Assembly: GCA_034411995.1 (NCBI GenBank)
Contig: DAOUME010000022.1
Location: 3,965 to 67,964, forward strand
Origin: Anaerolineae bacterium
GTDB taxonomy: Bacteria; Chloroflexota; Anaerolineae; UBA7937; B3-Chlor
DNA length: 64,000 nucleotides
Reading direction: 5' to 3'
The position numbers were made by a program, and so were the translations under genes. Below the pieces are notes generated by a model. That model saw only the letters and a program-made list of their open reading frames with translations, had not been told where the DNA came from and searched no databases. Numbering within the stretch: the stretch's first letter is position 1; each line of letters begins with the position of its first letter. This document shows positions 15,651-63,738 of this stretch, one piece after another.

Positions 15651-15660
15651 CCATGCTCAG

Positions 15661-15744
15661 TGCCGAGAAAGGGACTCGAACCCTTACGGGGTTACCCCCA
15701 CTGCGCCCTGAACGCAGCGCGTCTACCTGTTCCGCCACCTCGGC
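15661..15744 (-). tRNA. tRNA-Leu(CAG): tRNA-Leu (anticodon CAG), type II with long variable arm
   Basis: Minus-strand sequence GCCGAGGTGGCGGAACAGGTAGACGCGCTGCGTTCAGGGCGCAGTGGGGGTAACCCCGTAAGGGTTCGAGTCCCTTTCTCGGCA folds with a 7-bp acceptor stem, D-arm, anticodon loop TTCAGGG (anticodon CAG), long variable arm and T-loop GGTTCGAGTCC; CCA is not encoded. Confidence 0.85.
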
Positions 15745-54275: not shown

Positions 54276-55300
54276 TGGTGACTACTCGAGACGAAGTCAG
54301 GAGATTATTGATCTGGGATGCCCTGGGCGCGCTGGCGGTGGGGCTCATCGCCGGTTTTTTCAGTGGGGACTACGTCTACGCCCTCGCTATCAGCTTCGCC
54401 ATGGTCTACATGGTCGAGGTCTTCTACTTCCTGACCAAGCACCTTCTCAGACCAAGGATCGAGAGCCTCCCGCGCGTGAGGAGGGTGCTGGTGGAGATCG
54501 GTGCCTCCTTCGGGAGCCACCTGCTGGGCGGCGTCCTCGGCGCGTTGTTGGTTACCCTGCTCCTCCAGCGCTACACCCCTTTGCTGCTCGTCTATCTGGT
54601 GACCTTCTCCCTCTTCTTCCCGGCGGCTCACTCGGTGCAGTACGTCCGCATGTTCTACCGGGAGCTGAGAGAGACGGAGCTCCAGGAGGAACGGCTCAAG
54701 TCCCTGGCGGCTGAAGCCGAGCTCAAGGCGCTCAAGGCCCAGATCAACCCCCACTTTCTGTTCAACACCCTCAACACCATAGCCCACCTCATACGCACCG
54801 ATCCCTCGAGGGCTGAGAGGATGGTCGAGAGGCTGGCCGAGGTCTTTCGCTACGCACTCTTCGCCATCGAACGAGATACGGTCTCCTTGGAGGAGGAACT
54901 CGCCTTCATCGAGGATTATCTCGACCTGGAACACGAGCGCTTTGGAGACAGGCTGTCGGTGGAGGTCCGCGTGGCACCGAGCAGCCTTCGGGTCGCGGTA
55001 CCTCCCCTGATTCTCCAACCCCTCGTAGAAAACGCCCTGAAACACGGCCAGGGCCCGAAAGGAGAGGTGTTTCTGGAGCTGCAGGCCTCTCTCGACGATC
55101 AGCGCCTGACCATCGCCGTGAAGGACCAGGGTCCCGGGCTACCAGTTCAGAGGCGACAGGCACGCAGAGACGGCATCGGACTGCGAAACGTCCGGGAGCG
55201 GCTGAAAAAGACCTATGGAGAGGCATACCATCTGAGACTTGCCCCCAACGAGCCAAGGGGAGCAAAGGTCACCATCACCATTCCCCTGGAGCGAACATGA
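54276..55300 (+). CDS. LytS/YehU-family sensor histidine kinase
   Basis: N-terminal TM helices, His_kinase domain INPHFLFNTLNTIAHL, C-terminal HATPase_c (GIGLRNVRERL). The ORF was trimmed to the ATG at 54276. Confidence 0.8.
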
Positions 55301-56046
55301 AGCTGACCACCCTCATCGTTGATGACGAAGCGCCGGCCAGAGACCGGCTCCGGCACCTTCTGGCCGGCAACGAACTCGTGGACCTGGTCGGCGAGGCCAG
55401 GGACGGCGCCGAGGCGATAGAAGCCGTCGAGCGACTCTCTCCGGACCTCGTGCTGCTGGACATCCAGATGCCGGTGCTCGACGGTTTCGAGGTCATCGAA
55501 GCGCTCGACAAGCCGCCCGCCATCATCTTCGTGACCGCTTACGACGAATACGCCATCCGGGCGTTCGAGGTCAACGCACTGGACTACCTCTTGAAGCCCT
55601 TCCGGCAAGAGAGGCTGGAGAGGGCTGTAGCCAGAGCTCACGAGGAACTGACCGCGGGGCGCGAATTCGCCAGCAGAATCGGACCGCTTCTGGAGACCCT
55701 CCGTGAGGAGAAGCGCCTCCTGACTCGTGTGGCTGTACGCAAACCCGGTAGTCTCCTGGTGGTGGATGTCCGTGATATCGACTGGATGGAGGCCAGGGAA
55801 GGCGGTGTGCTCCTCCACATCGGCGCCGAGGAGCACGCCATAAGTCGCACGTTGACAGAGCTGGAGTCCCGACTAGACCCCAGCCTGTTCTTCCGCGCAC
55901 ACCGGTCGATCATCGTCAATCTCGATCGGGTCAAGGAGATCGTGCCCTGGTTCGCAGGGAGCCACCGGCTGCGCTTGACCACCGGGACGGAGGTGGATCT
56001 GAGCCGCTCCCGGGCCAGGGAACTCCGCGAGATACTGGGCCTCTAG
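55297..56046 (+). CDS. LytTR-family response regulator
   Basis: Receiver domain (LIVDDE...DLVLLDIQMP) plus C-terminal LytTR DNA-binding domain; start overlaps the kinase stop (ATGA). Confidence 0.85.
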   Translation: MKLTTLIVDDEAPARDRLRHLLAGNELVDLVGEARDGAEAIEAVERLSPDLVLLDIQMPVLDGFEVIEALDKPPAIIFVTAYDEYAIRAFEVNALDYLLKPFRQERLERAVARAHEELTAGREFASRIGPLLETLREEKRLLTRVAVRKPGSLLVVDVRDIDWMEAREGGVLLHIGAEEHAISRTLTELESRLDPSLFFRAHRSIIVNLDRVKEIVPWFAGSHRLRLTTGTEVDLSRSRARELREILGL

Positions 56047-56074
56047 ATGCCCTGTCAGGCGAGGAGGAGAGGGC

Positions 56075-56992
56075 ATGCCAGCCATCGAGGTCCAGCAACT
56101 CGTGAAGACGTACCACCAGGTGAGAGCGGTGGATGGCATCACCTTCTCCGTGGGCCAAGGAGAGGTCTTCGGGTTCCTGGGACCCAACGGTGCCGGCAAG
56201 ACGACCACCATAGAGATTCTGGAAGGATATCGCAGGCCCGACTCTGGGCTGGTGAGCGTGCTGGGCCTGGATCCCTGTGACGATGGCTACGAGCTCAAAG
56301 AGCGCGTGGGCATCCTGCTCCAGTCAACCTCCCTCCACCCTGACCTGACGGTGGCCGAACTGGTGTCCCTGTTTGAGGGATACTACCGGCACGCCACTCG
56401 ACCAGACACGCTCCTGCAAGCGATGGGACTGGGCGAGAAGCGTAGCGCCCGATACAGAGAGTTGTCAGGAGGTCAGCAGCAGAGGCTAGCTCTGGTTCTG
56501 GGCTTCATCAACGATCCTCGCCTCCTGTTCCTCGACGAGCCCACCGCTGGCCTCGATCCTCAGTCGCGACAAGCCGTGTGGGGATGGATCGTCCAGGCGC
56601 GCCTCGACAGCAAGACTGTCTTCCTCACCACACACCACATCGAGGAAGCACAGGAGTTGTGTGACCGGGTGGCTATCATCGACCACGGCAAGATCATCGC
56701 CCTGGACACCCCCCGGCGTTTGATGGCAGATCTGGGGATCGAGCAGAAGATCGTGTTCCTCACCGAGGACCCCGTGGACCTGGCCAGGCTTTCGTCGCTA
56801 CCGGGAGTGTGGGCAGCCGTGAGCCGCAGGGAGGGCGAATACTTGCTCCACGCAGAGGATCCACAACTGGCCCTCGCAGGTCTGATGGAGCTGGCCTCCG
56901 AGGAAGGGTTTCGACCAAGAGACCTGAGACTCGAGGGTGCCGCTCTGGAGGACGTGTTCATCAGTCTGACCGGCAGGAGAATGAGGGAATGA
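56075..56992 (+). CDS. ABC transporter ATP-binding protein
   Basis: Walker A GPNGAGKTT, signature LSGGQQQRL, Walker B LLFLDEPT. Confidence 0.85.
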   Translation: MPAIEVQQLVKTYHQVRAVDGITFSVGQGEVFGFLGPNGAGKTTTIEILEGYRRPDSGLVSVLGLDPCDDGYELKERVGILLQSTSLHPDLTVAELVSLFEGYYRHATRPDTLLQAMGLGEKRSARYRELSGGQQQRLALVLGFINDPRLLFLDEPTAGLDPQSRQAVWGWIVQARLDSKTVFLTTHHIEEAQELCDRVAIIDHGKIIALDTPRRLMADLGIEQKIVFLTEDPVDLARLSSLPGVWAAVSRREGEYLLHAEDPQLALAGLMELASEEGFRPRDLRLEGAALEDVFISLTGRRMRE

Positions 56993-57735
56993 AAGTCCTG
57001 TGGTCCGAGGTGCTGATTAACGTGAAGCTCTACTTCCGCAACGGACACGCCCTGGTGCCCACGGCGGGGTTTCCTCTGATCCTGATGATGCTCTTCGGCT
57101 ACATGTGTCGCGGCGAGAGCACGGGCGACGTGCCCCTGGTGGCCTACGTATTCGCCAGCACCGTCAGCATGTCGGTGGGAGGAACCGCGTTTCTCAACCT
57201 CTCCATCAGCCTGGTTGAGGAGCGAGACCAGGGAATCCTGAAGAGGCTCCGGGGCACGCCGCTCCGGGAGTGGCAGCTCCTGGGAGGAAAGGTCTTTGCT
57301 GCCAGCCTGGTCATCTGCTTGCAGTTGCTCGTCCTCTCCGTTGTCGGCGTGGCGCTCTTCGAACTCCGCCTGAAGGGGACTCCCCTCCCGTCATTGACCA
57401 TCCTCGTCGTGGGAACCCTGACCTTCCTGGCCATGGGCTTTTGCCTGGCCAGTCTGATGAAGAACGCCAGAGCGGCGGAGGCCTGGGCACTGGCCCTGTT
57501 CCTACCCATGCTGTTCATCGGTGGGGGGTTCTTCCCCACTGAGTCGCTGCCGCGAGCCGTACAGCAACTGGCGTGGGCCTTGCCTCTGACCCACTTCTAC
57601 GAAGCCCTGGTCTCGGTAATGGTGGAGGGCAGCAGCATCGTGAACAGCGCTCATCATCTGCTGATCGTGGGCCTCTGGGCGATAGGTTGTTTTGCGGTGA
57701 CGCTCAAAGCGTTCCGCTGGGAATCAAGCAGATAG
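56989..57735 (+). CDS. ABC-2 type permease
   Basis: MKVLWSEVLINVKLYFRN start overlapping the ATPase stop (ATGA); six TM helices. Confidence 0.75.
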   Translation: MKVLWSEVLINVKLYFRNGHALVPTAGFPLILMMLFGYMCRGESTGDVPLVAYVFASTVSMSVGGTAFLNLSISLVEERDQGILKRLRGTPLREWQLLGGKVFAASLVICLQLLVLSVVGVALFELRLKGTPLPSLTILVVGTLTFLAMGFCLASLMKNARAAEAWALALFLPMLFIGGGFFPTESLPRAVQQLAWALPLTHFYEALVSVMVEGSSIVNSAHHLLIVGLWAIGCFAVTLKAFRWESSR

Positions 57736-57924: not shown

Positions 57925-58470
57925 ATGACTTCTTTCAAGGAGCAACTATACAGACTCAACCCCTGGATCCTTTCGTCAGTGGCGGGCGTTCTCACAGCGG
58001 TGCAGATTGGCCTGTGCATCGTTCGCTCCCATCCGGAGGGTGTGCCCCTGCTCAGATATACGGGCTATGTCCTCTGGACAGCAGCCGTGGTCTTCGCTGT
58101 GCTGCCCGTCTTCACCCTCAAGCGCAAGGGGCGGGTGGCCGAGGGCCAGAGCTACATGAAGACCACAACCCTGGTGACCAGCGGGGTGTACTCTCTGGTT
58201 CGGCATCCGCAGGGAGGCCTGGCCTGGCTGCTGATGAACCTGGCAGTGATGCTGGTGGGGCAGACCTGGCCCATCGTACTCCTGGGCGGCGTGTCCATGC
58301 TCCTGGTGTACCTGGACGCGCACAAGACCGATCAGTACTGTGTTGAGAAGTTCGGCGAGGAGTATGAACGTTATATGGAGATTGTGCCCAGGGTCAACGT
58401 GATAGTGGGAGCAACACGGCTGCTGCGGAGAAAGGCAGGGGGTGGCCAGCAACCGGACCCCTCCATCTGA
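57925..58470 (+). CDS. ICMT/PEMT-like methyltransferase-family membrane protein
   Basis: TM helices plus LVTSGVYSLVRHPQ motif typical of isoprenylcysteine carboxyl methyltransferase-like proteins. Confidence 0.55.
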   Translation: MTSFKEQLYRLNPWILSSVAGVLTAVQIGLCIVRSHPEGVPLLRYTGYVLWTAAVVFAVLPVFTLKRKGRVAEGQSYMKTTTLVTSGVYSLVRHPQGGLAWLLMNLAVMLVGQTWPIVLLGGVSMLLVYLDAHKTDQYCVEKFGEEYERYMEIVPRVNVIVGATRLLRRKAGGGQQPDPSI

Positions 58471-58594
58471 GGAACCCAGCACGGGAACACGAGGCAAAGA
58501 AACAGCCCCCGCGATCGCGGGGGCTGTCGTCTTCCTGGTACGAATGCCGAGCGGCGGCGTGTCCGTCGTCTGCGTCAGCCGTAGGGCCTACAGC

Positions 58595-59935
58595 TCATCT
58601 GTTGGGAGTGCAGCAATACGCCTGACCAACGCCGGGAGAGTCCATGGCATCCGTGGCGATCCGATCAAGGTCCAGGCCTACCAGGAAACTTCCATTCGGA
58701 CACCAGGTCACGGGCTGGTGGCTGTTAATCCCGGCCTGTTCCACCTTCACCCAGGAACATGAACCCCAGCCACTGTACTTGGGGTCACCCAGCGGACAGC
58801 AGAAACCTTGTCCAACTCCTGGGGAGTCCATGGGGTCGGTCGCGATACGATCCAGGTCCAGGCCTGTCAGATACTGGCCGTTGGGACACCAAGCCACGGG
58901 CTGGTGGCTATTGATGCCGGCCTGTTCCACCTTCACCCAGGAACACTGGCCCCAGGGACTGAACTGGGCAACACTCAGTGGGCAGCAAAAACCCGCACCA
59001 ACCCCGGGAGAGTCCATGGGGTCCGTGGCGATCCGATCGAGGTCCAGACCGGCCAGGAAACTCCCGTTGGGACACCAGGTCTTCGGCTGATGGCTGTTGA
59101 TCCCTGCCTGTTCCACTCCCACCCAGGAACACTGACCCCACACGGGGACGAAAGTTGTTGGCGTCGCCGTGGCCGCCGGAGGTGGCGGCGGTGGCTGAGT
59201 TGCCGTAGCCGCAGGAGGTGCGGGTGGCTGAGTCGCCGTGGCCGCAGGGGGAGCCGGTGGCTGCGGCGTGGGCTCTGGTGGCGCGCCGTCCTCGACGTGC
59301 AGGGTCACGTTGCGCGTCTGAGGTCCTCCCGGTCCTTCCACCAACAGCTCGTAGGTGACGGTTCCCTCGGGGCACTCCTCCCTCTCCCCAATGGGCGGCG
59401 CCTCCTGACCATTGACGAAGGTGGGGAACTCGGGAGGCTGTACCTCCCAGTGCAGCATGGCGCACCCACCCTTGGGGATCACGTCAGGGTCGACGATGAA
59501 GTTGATGACCTCTGGTCCTCCTTCAGGAGGTGGCTCTTCCGGTGGGACTTCCTCCGGAGGGCCTTCTTCCGGCGGCGGTTCCTCGCCTCCGCCCTCGACC
59601 CGGATCAGCACGGTCTCCCTCACCGATCCGCTGGGTGCCGCCACCACCAGCTCGAAGGTCCTGGTCTCGTCGAGACACACGTCCTGCTCACCCGAGGCAG
59701 GGACTTCCCGGCCGTCGAAGAAGATCGGATAGTCTTCGGCGCCGCTAACGTCCCAGTGCACCAACGTGCACCCGCCCGGCGGGACCACTTCCTCGCTCGA
59801 CCAGAGCTGTATCTCGGGCTCCGTGCCAACACCCGGAAACACGCTGGGAAGCGTACAGCCAGCGGCGCCGGCGAACAGTGCGAGAGCCACCGCCAGCGTC
59901 AGCCCAAGTAAGACTGGAGATCTCTGTCTACTCAT
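58595..59935 (-). CDS. Secreted lipoprotein with two Ig-like modules, Pro-rich linkers and three tandem 62-aa Cys-rich repeats (unknown domain)
   Basis: ATG at 59935 preceded by AGGGAGGA; lipoprotein signal LALALFAGAAGC; repeats WGQCSWV(K/G)VEQAGINSHQPxxWCPNGxxLxGLDLDRIATDPMDSPGVGxGFCC, three copies; PPxE and PPAPPAATATQ linkers. Confidence 0.65.
   Translation of the reverse strand: MSRQRSPVLLGLTLAVALALFAGAAGCTLPSVFPGVGTEPEIQLWSSEEVVPPGGCTLVHWDVSGAEDYPIFFDGREVPASGEQDVCLDETRTFELVVAAPSGSVRETVLIRVEGGGEEPPPEEGPPEEVPPEEPPPEGGPEVINFIVDPDVIPKGGCAMLHWEVQPPEFPTFVNGQEAPPIGEREECPEGTVTYELLVEGPGGPQTRNVTLHVEDGAPPEPTPQPPAPPAATATQPPAPPAATATQPPPPPPAATATPTTFVPVWGQCSWVGVEQAGINSHQPKTWCPNGSFLAGLDLDRIATDPMDSPGVGAGFCCPLSVAQFSPWGQCSWVKVEQAGINSHQPVAWCPNGQYLTGLDLDRIATDPMDSPGVGQGFCCPLGDPKYSGWGSCSWVKVEQAGINSHQPVTWCPNGSFLVGLDLDRIATDAMDSPGVGQAYCCTPNR
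58598..59145. repeat. Tandem 186-bp coding repeat, three copies (inside the Cys-rich repeat gene)
   Basis: Repeat visible in both the minus-strand gene and its plus-strand shadow ORF 58644..59090 (MASVAIRSRSRP.. repeated three times). Confidence 0.75.
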
Positions 59936-60123
59936 CTGATCCTCCCTTCTAGTGCCCTCACTCATTGGGGCCCGGGCACCTGAGCCCCCCCAATGGATTT
60001 CGATTACTATAGCAGCCAGCCAGCACAATGTCAACCCGGTGACGGAGCAGGGTGCGGAAAAAGGCGGCGAGCGAGGGGCGCTGTACAGGCTCGAAAACCA
60101 CACGTATAATGACAGGCAGGGCC

Positions 60124-61554
60124 ATGTCGCGAGCAGGCCATCCTGGTCTGCTGAAGAAACACGTACCGGTGTGGCCGTGCCCGGAACAGGCAGTGAAAGG
60201 TCGAATACTCCTCATCAACCCCTGGATCTACGACTTCGCCGCCTACTGCGAATGGAGCGAGCCCCTGGGCCTGCTCTCCGTCGCCGCCGTGCTGAAGGAG
60301 AACGGCTATGAGGTCTCCCTCATCGACTGCCTGGACAGGCACCATCCCCAACTGCCCACCGGGTCTCGTGAAGACTCCTATGGCCGCGGCAAGTTCCTGA
60401 AGACCTTCATCGAGACACCGCCCCTCCTCTCCCACGTCCCACGTCGCTACGGGCGATACGGCCTCCCGGCGGAGGTCTTCGAGGAGGAGCTGGAGCGGCA
60501 GCCCCGGCCTGACATCACTATGGTCACCTCCGGGATGACCTACTGGTACCCGGGGCCTTTCGAGGCCATCCGGAGAGCCAAGGCGCACTTCCCGGGGGTG
60601 CCCACCGTTCTGGGGGGCGTCTACGCCACGCTCTGCCCCCATCACGCCCGGGAAGAGTCAGGCGCCGATCACATCGTCACGGGCGAGGGGGAGCTCCAGG
60701 CGCTGCGCCTCGTTGATGAGTTGACCGGCAACAGGTCCGACTACGGGCCGTACAGCTCGGATCTCGACTCCCTGCCCTGGCCTTCCCACGAGCTGCGCAG
60801 GAATCAGGGGTACGCAGCTATCCAGACGTCGCGCGGCTGCCCCTTCCACTGCACGTATTGCGCTTCTTCCCTGCTGCACCCACAGGGCTTCAGGCGAAGA
60901 GCTCCACACCGCGTGGCGGACGAGATAGAACAGTGCCGAAGGGAGTTGGGAATCCGCGATTTCGCCTTCTACGACGACGCCCTCCTGGTGGAGGCCACCG
61001 GTCACCTCCACCTCCTCCTGGACCAGGTGCTGCAACGGCGCCTGGACTGCCGGTTTCACACCCCCAACGGCCTGCACGCTCGTTACCTGGACGAACCCCT
61101 GGCCTCCAAGATGTACCGGGCTGGGTTCAGAACGATCAGGCTGGGGTTGGAGACCTCGGATGCCCGCGAGCAGCAGCGCACCGGCTCCAAGGTCAACAAC
61201 GAGGACTTCCGCTCCGCCGTCCGAGCCCTGAAGGGGGCCGGCTTCAGGACGGATCAGATCACCGCCTACGTGCTCATGGGACTGCCCGGGCAAGCGGTGC
61301 CGGAGGTGATGGACAGCGTGGATTTCGCCCACGAAAACGGGGTACTGGTCCAGATCGAGGCCCTCTCACTCATCCCTGGGACCGTGGAATGGGAGCGCGC
61401 CCGGCTCGGCGGCCACCTGGACGGCGGTGTCGACCCGCTTCTGCACAACAACTCCCTCTACCCCTTTTCCTGGTGCGCAGCCAGTATGGATGACTTCCAG
61501 AAAGCCAAGTCGCGCGCCACGGCGGGAAACCGCGCCCTGGTCCGCGCCTCATGA
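60124..61554 (+). CDS. B12-binding domain radical SAM protein
   Basis: N-terminal B12-binding Rossmann region ([15 protein letters not shown]...[21 protein letters not shown]), radical SAM cluster motif ([10 protein letters not shown]). The ORF was trimmed to the ATG at 60124. Confidence 0.75.
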
Positions 61555-61661
61555 CCTGGCCCTGCAAGTGTGGTTTCCACAATCAACCGTTCTATGTTAG
61601 AATACTCTTGGACCCCAGGCTCGCACGCAGAGCAGAGCACCCGGGTCAGGAGGTTGTGGTT

Positions 61662-62567
61662 GTGAGCAAGATTGGCAGGAACGACCCTTGCCCTTGCGGC
61701 AGTGGGAAGAAGTACAAGCACTGCTGTCTCCAGAAGGAAGCGGCCGGCAAGTCGGAAGCCATGAGCCGCGACCGGGCCTGGGACACGATGATGGACAAGC
61801 TCCTCGACTTCTCGCGCGAGACACGATTCCGTGTGGATCTGGAAGCGGCGTTTGACCTCTTCTGGAACAAGAGCTACACCCTCGAACAGAGCGGCGAACT
61901 CGTGCCTCCGCAGATCATGAGTTTTCTGGACTGGTACGTCCACGACTACCAGACCTCGGCTGACGGCCGGAGGATCGTGAAGATCTTCCTCGAGGAGAAG
62001 GGCCGTGCGCTTTCCGAGCAAGAGCGGAACCTGCTGCGAGCGGACACCGACGCCCTCCTCAGCGCCTTCAAGGTCACCGGGGCGGAACCGGGTGAAACCA
62101 TCGGGCTGCTGGACGTGTTTCAGAACTCGGAGGTGGAGCTGCCCCACACTCCCTCTTTGCGGGGCGTGGAGGAAGGTCAGTTGTTGCTGGCTCGCCTGGT
62201 CACCGCGGGCGAGTACCGCCGTTTCTCCTGGATCAGCGCCCTCATACCGCCAGAGGTCGAGGAGAGCTTCACAGCCCACGTCCAGGAGATGTTCGCCGCC
62301 TACCAGGACGAGCACTACCAGGCCCCGTGGCCGCAGTTCCTGCGGCAAAGGAGCTACGTCTTCAATCACTTCCTGCTAGAGCTGAGAGGAGAGGTGGCCC
62401 CACCCAGGATCATACTGCCCGACCAGGAGAGGACTCAGGCTGAGCCTCGGCCCACCGTTCTCACCCTCGACGACCTGCGATCGAAGGATGGTCCTCCCGT
62501 TGCTGTGCCGGGGCAGAAGGAGCGCAGACCCCGACCTACCGTTCTGGTGCCCGGCAGGGACACCTAG
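61662..62567 (+). CDS. SEC-C metal-binding motif protein
   Basis: GTG start after a GGAGG RBS; N-terminal [17 protein letters not shown] (SEC-C motif) followed by about 280 aa of unknown function. Confidence 0.55.
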
Positions 62568-62859: not shown

Positions 62860-63738
62860 GTGAATCAGGAGCGAGAATTGAACCCAGATGAGCTGGCCGG
62901 TGCACAGCCACAGTCGCGGCCAGTAGAGCTGGAGGCGAAGCTGGACGACCTCAGGCAACTTCTCCGGGACATGGGCCGGGTGATCGTCGCCTACTCCGGA
63001 GGCACGGATAGTACGCTCCTGCTCAAGGTCGCCCACGAGGAACTGGGCCCAGGCGCCGTCGCGGTGACCGCCGTCAGCCCCACCACCCCCAGAGAGGAGC
63101 TGGATAGTGCGGCCAGCGTGGCCAGGGAGATCGGCGCTCAACACCTGCTCGTCGACAGCGATGAACTGGACGACGCGGACTACGTGGCCAACACGCCGGA
63201 ACGGTGTTATCACTGCAAGCACGTGCGCTTCGGCAAGCTCACGGAGATGGCTCGAGACAGAGATTTCTCCTACGTGGTAGATGGAAGTAACCTCGACGAT
63301 CTGGGAGACCACAGGCCGGGCATGAGGGCCGCTCGCGAACTGGGCGTGCGCAGCCCTCTCCGGGAGGCTGGTCTGAACAAGGCTGACATTCGTGCCCTGA
63401 GCCGGAAGCTGGGCCTATCCACCTGGGACAAGCCGTCCGGCGCATGTCTGGCCAGTCGCCTCCCTTACGGGACCCCCATCACCGGCGCGCGTCTAAAACA
63501 GGTCGAAGATGCGGAGAGGTTTGTCCGCAGTCTGGGCATCTCTCAACTGCGCGTCCGGCTCCACGGGGACATAGCCCGCATCGAGGTAGAAGCGAAAGAC
63601 CTGCCGGTACTGCTTCAGAACCGATCGTTGATCGTGAAGGAGTTGCGAGGACTGGGATTTTCGTACGTGACGGCCGATCTGGAGGGGTATCGCACGGGGA
63701 GCATGAACGAGACCCTGGCGGAAGAAGAGCATGAATGA
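62860..63738 (+). CDS. larE: ATP-dependent sacrificial sulfur transferase LarE (PP-loop ATP pyrophosphatase)
   Basis: PP-loop SGGTDS ([14 protein letters not shown]), conserved Cys in ...[13 protein letters not shown]..., and the overall LarE pattern; immediately followed by LarB. Confidence 0.75.

Follow-up and report, generated by a model that had tools for sequence, protein, structure and literature searches.

On the minus strand of a 64,000-nucleotide stretch of contig DAOUME010000022.1 from an Anaerolineae bacterium (hereinafter the window), a gene at 58595..59935 encodes a protein of 446 residues with three tandem Cys-rich repeats at its C-terminus. We propose that it is a membrane-anchored, stalked lipoprotein with a three-bladed ligand-binding head, which we regard as the best joint explanation of the observations and as somewhat better than an even bet. 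In the proposed arrangement, the lipid-modified Cys27 would anchor a flexible stalk comprising an Ig-like module, an acidic PPEE linker, a second Ig-like module and a Pro/Ala/Thr linker, at whose tip the three 62-residue repeats would pack as blades around a pseudo-threefold axis to form a single globular head. Each blade would consist of about three beta-strands stapled by nested C1-C4 and C2-C3 disulfides, and all three would display one set of conserved polar residues, namely S-H in the GINSHQ loop, D-L-D and D-S-P. Between DLD and DSP, each would also have a variable loop, alike within a protein and different between species. With such a head, the protein could bind an extracellular ligand at three equivalent sites, a glycan or some other surface polymer being the likeliest candidate, and would serve as an adhesin of the cell surface or as a receptor for ligand capture. 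The parts of the gene and its product are as follows:

58595..59935 (-), coding sequence of the 446-residue lipoprotein; ATG at 59935, TGA at 58595-58597, ribosome-binding site GGGAGG at 59943-59948
59855..59935 (-), putative signal peptide and lipobox, residues 1-27, ending in FAGAAG followed by C27; read from the sequence
59591..59821 (-), Ig-like module 1, residues 39-115, seven strands and two Cys; AlphaFold2 (predicted local distance difference test score, pLDDT, >90) and Foldseek
59513..59590 (-), acidic Pro/Glu linker (PPEE), GGGEEPPPEEGPPEEVPPEEPPPEGG; pLDDT ~48-51, predicted to be disordered
59285..59512 (-), Ig-like module 2, residues 142-217; AlphaFold2 and Foldseek
59156..59284 (-), Pro/Ala/Thr linker including a 33-bp x3 tandem repeat (QPPAPPAATAT, 59163-59263); Tandem Repeats Finder
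58970..59155 (-), Cys-rich repeat 1, residues 261-322, predicted blade 1; Tandem Repeats Finder, alignment, AlphaFold2 and repeat counting (likewise for the next two)
58784..58969 (-), Cys-rich repeat 2, residues 323-384, predicted blade 2
58598..58783 (-), Cys-rich repeat 3, residues 385-446, predicted blade 3, ending in AYCCTPNR

Architecture of the proposed three-repeat head

Alignment delineates three tandem in-frame units of 186 bp, or 62 residues, at 58598-59155 with four Cys in each, and the Tandem Repeats Finder program recovers the array with a period of 186 bp (2.8 copies, 58625-59140; 79% to the consensus). The two procedures thus bear out the repeats and the motif running through them that had been described in a sequence-only reading of this region. 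Neither the repeat nor the stalk modules recur elsewhere in the 64-kb window. The AlphaFold2 model of the three repeats has a pLDDT of 87.5 and a predicted template modelling score (pTM) of 0.84, with about three beta-strands in each repeat, whereas the model of residues 39-217 displays two seven-strand modules with pLDDT >90 and an overall pLDDT of 87.6, with a pTM of only 0.44. This difference in pTM at like pLDDT is what would be expected if the Ig-like modules were independent beads and the repeat trio one body. Going by the model, the three repeats most likely fold together as one pseudo-threefold domain, and it is from the same model that we infer the exact three-dimensional topology.

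A word-indexed search for homologs returned 36 relatives, nearly all of them unnamed metagenome proteins, and an exhaustive profile search of 1.84 billion representative proteins returned 144 clusters at 50% identity, which is the family size used here, with 99 of these reaching E <= 1e-10. The close orthologues (73-85% identity), including those of the loci L009 and L014, have the full architecture and belong without exception to genome bins of Anaerolineae, Anaerolineales or Chloroflexota. One distant member is encoded in a Thermodesulfobacteriota genome. Counting with a single-repeat hidden Markov model (HMM) yielded 89 proteins with exactly three repeats, none with more, 19 with two (mostly truncated fragments) and 61 with one. 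The short proteins with one C-terminal repeat are frequently endowed with oligomerizing stalks: collagen G-X-Y tracts of 6-25 triplets are present in 7 of 34 and coiled-coil-like stalks in 15 of 34, against 0 and 5, respectively, of the 61 three-repeat proteins (Fisher p = 9e-9 when a stalk of either kind is counted and 5e-4 when only collagen is). In one of them, P0119, the tract matches the Pfam Collagen model at E = 7e-15. Collagen helices are obligate trimers, and a single repeat on a collagen stalk would therefore be brought together in threes. This agrees with both the fixed number of three repeats in a single chain and the high pTM of the trio.

The Cys patterns were tallied across 368 repeats, with all four present (CCCC) in 212, only the inner pair (xCCx) in 80, only the outer pair (CxxC) in 20 and every mismatched pattern in 5 or fewer. 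Because C1 co-occurs with C4, and C2 with C3, two nested disulfides, C1-C4 and C2-C3, are predicted inside each repeat. Also conserved in every blade are S17 (0.91), H18 (0.87), D35 (0.90), D37 (0.86), P48 and the W/C/G framework, together the candidate residues of three equivalent sites.

The loop between DLD and DSP displays a different behavior from the rest of the repeat. Across eight orthologues, its identity between the repeats of one protein (0.66) is higher than that between orthologues (0.51), a within-protein value reached by 0 of 2000 permutations, whereas in the repeat core the same-position identity between orthologues (0.82) exceeds that between the repeats within a protein (0.74). 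Accordingly, the loop types are alike among the blades of one protein and differ by genome (RIATD, RQAID, REGTYD and RLGGAD). In the loop tract of the window protein, repeats 1 and 3 have the same codons, and repeat 2 has the same residues with five synonymous differences. This pattern points to gene conversion over short tracts, to selection that keeps the loops identical, or to a combination of the two.

The domain architectures of the relatives provide a guide to function. The head follows, on the C-terminal side, secreted proteases of the trypsin-like type (13 of 82) and M35 metalloproteases (3), and co-occurs with PKD, PAN, Big_2, BACON and RicinB modules. In a Ser/Thr kinase with an FHA domain, it ends the ectodomain, where it is preceded by two beta-modules and a PT linker in the same cassette. 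These architectures indicate that it behaves as an extracellular targeting or ligand-binding module. Hence, an adhesin or binding protein is the most plausible role, for which we infer ligand binding, the nature of the ligand and the threefold sites.

Several points weigh against this proposal. The head has no ligand, experimental structure or characterized homolog to its name, and the genomic context offers no functional hint. The Cys and loop statistics count related sequences, such that the p-values overstate independence, and the coiled-coil calls come from a crude heptad heuristic. Moreover, the homogenization of the loop could arise from gene conversion alone, without functional meaning.

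Ancestry and alternative readings of the repeat

The sequence-only reading had called the domain unrecognized, and sequence and profile searches uphold this, in that membership of the repeat in a curated family could not be demonstrated. Against the Pfam cut-offs of 25 bits for VOMI (PF03762) and 21 bits for Barwin (PF00967), the VOMI model falls short with both the whole protein (18.1 bits) and the head alone (21.8 bits), and the Barwin model scores 21.3 bits with the whole protein and 26.4 bits with the head alone. The Barwin match covers only positions 47-105 of the 119 in the profile rather than its full length, no stretch passes individually, it is present in only 3 of 17 relatives, and the double-psi beta-barrel fold was not recovered. 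A Barwin identity was rejected, the score being a sum of partial GLDLD-centered matches across the three repeats. The precomputed Pfam labels of the relatives P0001 and P0002 list PF00967, and automated annotation of the family as Barwin is probably wrong. Of the NCBIfam models, the sole match to the protein is MXAN_5187 (E = 0.17) in the stalk region, with none relevant to the repeat. Sequence and profile searches of the PDB sequences with the head, the profile A1 and the relative P0018 retrieved nothing, and a Foldseek search of the PDB with the head model gave only noise (E >= 0.75). No literature was found for PF27023, a precomputed label on two relatives, and the three papers found to mention PF03762 appear to deal with animal or methodological topics.

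Nevertheless, a very distant VOMI-type ancestry is possible. This concerns descent and is compatible with the binding-head mechanism; if the head shared such an ancestry, it would bind GlcNAc-type oligosaccharides, as VOMI reportedly does. VOMI and the head protein each have three internal repeats, both end in CC, and they have in common the in-phase motif WG.W ... (W)CP.G(F/Y)L..(F/L).L ... D(D/S)(T/P)(A/V) ... C, with hhalign placing the VOMI and repeat motifs (WCP.G.FL) in register. Among 17 relatives, 7 give a match to the Pfam VOMI model at E <= 0.1, led by P0018, whose 27.4 bits exceed the cut-off of 25 with no single stretch passing, and the family HMM matches one fish VOMI at 22 bits via WCPSG-FLTAFQL. 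However, beyond the window protein itself scoring under the cut-off, the profile-profile comparisons are weak: against a VOMI profile comprising the true 1VMO sequence and 120 VOMI proteins, exclusively from vertebrates, hhalign returned P = 0.01 (4%) when all three repeats were compared and P = 0.002, over 14 columns, when only one was, with probabilities spanning 4-14%. The vertebrate VOMI HMM scores the family members no better than shuffled decoys, the profile search of the PDB sequences misses 1VMO, the head model did not yield a type-I beta-prism superposition on 1VMO, and the head repeats have about 12 additional residues (the GINSHQ loop) and a second disulfide. The comparison with VOMI yielded a motif-level likeness that lacks significance in the profile-profile and decoy tests, and we consider the shared ancestry conceivable though on balance unlikely.

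A distinctly unlikely alternative to ligand capture is that the head is a structural or envelope-organizing element, such as an anchor to the filament sheath, the S-layer or the cell wall. Anaerolineae are filamentous, and this habit, together with the lipid anchor and the long stalks, would suit such an element; the partner of a conserved symmetric head could be a self polymer, and the protease fusions could equally retain the enzyme on the surface of the producer. However, close orthologues differ in the DLD-DSP loop, a variation more in keeping with changing targets than with a self structure that is conserved, and the head also caps the ectodomain of a receptor kinase, even if the data do not tell self from non-self ligands.

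A further reading, built on the recent expansion inferred in the sequence-only reading, takes the repeats for three independent disulfide-rich modules, recently amplified and variable in copy number between strains. The tandem 186-bp periodicity and the local DNA tracts at 93-97% identity (in 30-nt windows, repeats 2 and 3 reach 0.97 and repeats 1 and 3 reach 0.93) are consistent with such an origin. However, the DNA identity of 85-90% that had been put forward holds only for these short tracts, and drops to 73-74% in pairwise comparisons of the full 186-bp units, with 73-77% for the amino acids and 52-63% at third codon positions, indicating that the synonymous sites have diverged. All 8 orthologues possess three repeats and share the position-specific linkers PLSVAQFSPWGQC and PLGDPKYSGWGSC; together with the higher same-position identity of the repeat core between orthologues, the sequence comparisons place the triplication family-wide and before the Anaerolineae orthologues, rather than in a recent expansion. 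The window protein does have the highest self-similarity between repeats in the family (0.79 amino-acid identity versus a median of 0.49). Rather than varying, the copy number is fixed at three across the 89 proteins; moreover, the single repeats come with trimerizing stalks, and the pTM of the trio favors one pseudo-threefold domain of three blades over three separate ones. Hence, the reading as independent modules is very improbable and already largely refuted.

Finally, it is hardly credible that the repeat is catalytic, with a small hydrolase site of Ser-His and Asp, or a Barwin-like double-psi beta-barrel: S17, H18, D35 and D37 are highly conserved and the Barwin scores and labels are on record, but that match rests on the summed GLDLD motif in few relatives, the triad geometry is unlikely in a 62-residue blade with an adjacent S-H, and the domain acts as a C-terminal accessory of real enzymes.

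The gene, its stalk and its neighbors

Returning to the proposed stalked lipoprotein with a binding head, the N-terminus MSRQRSPVLLGLTLAVALALFAGAAG-C27 satisfies, as judged by eye, the lipobox pattern [LVI/A][ASTVI][GAS]C, and the Cys is retained in the orthologues in the form of ALGC or LMGC. This fits a predicted surface-anchored, lipid-modified lipoprotein. The two stalk modules match tandem immunoglobulin domains in Foldseek searches (E ~1e-6, probability 1.0) and are seven-strand sandwiches superposable on Ig domains; together with the AlphaFold2 model, this establishes the label Ig-like as correct. No Pfam model covers them, and a homolog search with the Ig-like stalk recovered only 7 close orthologues. 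The QPPAPPAATAT linker varies in both sequence and length among the orthologues. The lipoprotein signal, the two Ig-like modules, the Pro-rich linkers and the divergent transcription of a B12-binding radical-SAM gene had all been noticed in the sequence-only reading, and each of them stands, the linkers as PPEE and as QPPAPPAATAT in the 33-bp x3 array.

The longest minus-strand open reading frame (ORF) extends from a GTG at 60103 to 58595, and the sensible choice of a credible start is the ATG at 59935, six bases downstream of GGGAGG. Two further elements flank the gene:

60006..60034 (-), sigma-70-like promoter TTGACA-17-TATAGT with TG extension; ~70 nt upstream of the ATG, 11/12 matches
58497..58527 (-), terminator-like hairpin ACAGCCCCCGCG-AUCG-CGCGGGGGCUGU followed by UUUCUUU; between convergent genes

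Promoter-like sites in the region of the lipoprotein gene number 2, versus 0.1 expected from shuffles, with the other one pointing the opposite way, to the radical-SAM neighbor. The GC hairpin lies 70-100 nt beyond the stop codon and has a minimum free energy of -37.8 kcal/mol (z = -3.5; 0 of 200 shuffles equally stable); a simple pattern scan for terminators did not pick it up. With the promoter, the ribosome-binding site and the terminator-like hairpin in place, the lipoprotein gene looks like a self-contained transcription unit.

The divergent B12-binding radical-SAM gene (60052-61554, +) has its own promoter-like site, TGTACA-17-TATAAT, at 60082-60110. Its orthologues begin with MKGRILL; the listed ORF is therefore probably about 47 codons too long, and the likely start is the GTG at 60193. 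Downstream of it are genes for a SEC-C-motif protein (61551-62567, +) and a PP-loop ATPase (62860-63738, +), which resembles LarE from its Pfam matches. In the loci L009 and L014, the PP-loop ATPase is followed by a gene whose product we take to resemble LarB, and the two may constitute a nickel-pincer cofactor gene pair. On the other side, a PEMT/ICMT-like membrane methyltransferase gene (57925-58470, +) is convergent with the lipoprotein gene; it occupies the same place in L014, with a glycosyltransferase gene instead in L009. Upstream of the locus, 55297-57735 (+) encodes an ABC ATPase and an ABC-2 permease identified by Pfam, before which a 249-residue ORF (55297-56046) looks like a LytTR-type response regulator, going by its sequence. 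The sole tRNA gene in the window is a tRNA-Leu (CAG) at 15660-15744 (-).

The synteny with the divergent radical-SAM, SEC-C and PP-loop genes is kept in the orthologous Anaerolineae loci L009 and L014, whereas the radical-SAM neighbor is absent near the distant family members in the loci examined. A functional link to the radical-SAM gene was dropped and the arrangement read as local gene order, since the synteny is confined to close relatives. The neighbors of the distant relatives (a CHAT domain, a STAND NTPase, peptidase C1, kinase/TPR and Laminin_G proteins) show no common theme.

Some outlying proteins were also recovered by the searches. P0034, P0035, P0036, P0121 and P0127 form a sub-family with one repeat near the N-terminus followed by an uncharacterized domain of about 120 residues; the P0036 loci, L004-L006, adjoin unannotated genes for proteins of 227 and 256 residues and one for a PD40/Laminin_G protein. 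P0169 (435 residues) has four to five divergent CP.G.FL.GL.R.G...CC units and may belong to a different family with the CP.G core motif that is also found in VOMI. P0144, P0146 and P0171, which are long proteins with 6-9 weak matches, have only a YC.DG.FL-type motif of 10 residues in common with the repeat and were rejected as members.

Significance and comparison with known systems

If the model is true, the family would furnish a compact, disulfide-linked head of about 185 residues that is deployed on lipoprotein stalks, trypsin-like and M35 proteases, receptor kinases and collagen-like fibers, and would show how a single module occurs in nature both as a homotrimer and as a fused pseudo-trimer. 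The blade-homogenized loop would then provide a handle on how threefold binding sites shift their specificity jointly. A family definition would also fix the occasional Barwin and VOMI mislabels in metagenomic genomes, among them those of Chloroflexota. In practical terms, the stakes are modest, as the family is small and found mostly in uncultured organisms.

Resistin and the C-terminal CHRD of PCSK9 offer one point of comparison. The resistin head sits on a coiled coil. In PCSK9, the CHRD consists of three tandem Cys-rich modules of about 75 residues, tightly packed and with nested disulfides, C-terminal to a serine protease, and its structure is homologous to that of the homotrimer formed by resistin (PMC9113161). 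The family described here similarly comes either as a fused triple, often behind serine proteases, or as a single repeat on a collagen or coiled-coil-like stalk and, as judged from the model and the architectures, it too would build one threefold body from three Cys-rich modules. However, the CHRD module has six Cys, three disulfides and about six strands, whereas the family repeat has four Cys, two predicted disulfides and about three strands. By this analogy, the likeness would be one of design rather than demonstrated homology.

VOMI (PF03762, 1VMO), a type-I beta-prism with pseudo-threefold symmetry (PMC2881412), is likewise composed of three internal repeats with the in-phase WG.W / CP.G.L / ...C(C) motif, but is a eukaryotic stand-alone protein. 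The MABP-type beta-prisms also comprise three three-stranded subdomains with internal threefold symmetry and serve as a targeting module (PMC2881412); however, the MABP, MACPF beta-prism and Vip3A C-terminal domains are without disulfides, their scores are near noise, and no sequence similarity to them was found.

For ligand binding, a "works like" model is provided by collagen-stalked heads, such as that of Legionella Lcl, whose trimeric C-terminal domain binds glycosaminoglycans (PMC11162425), and those of BclA/C1q-like proteins. The single-repeat relatives P0115, P0119, P0124, P0133, P0159 and others share with these a membrane anchor, a G-X-Y stalk and a small C-terminal head, with no relation in sequence or fold being detected. 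The window protein differs in lacking a collagen stalk: its three protomers would be fused in one chain, with the Ig-like modules and Pro-rich linkers serving as the stalk. Set beside these systems, the repeat may be an undescribed disulfide-stapled trimeric-head fold that exists in interchangeable single-on-stalk and fused-triple forms with co-evolving sites and, at its boldest, a bacterial counterpart or distant relative of the resistin/PCSK9-CHRD or VOMI heads of animals, a proposal that we advance tentatively and with low confidence. At the least, it is a small, uncurated bacterial domain family of a familiar general kind.

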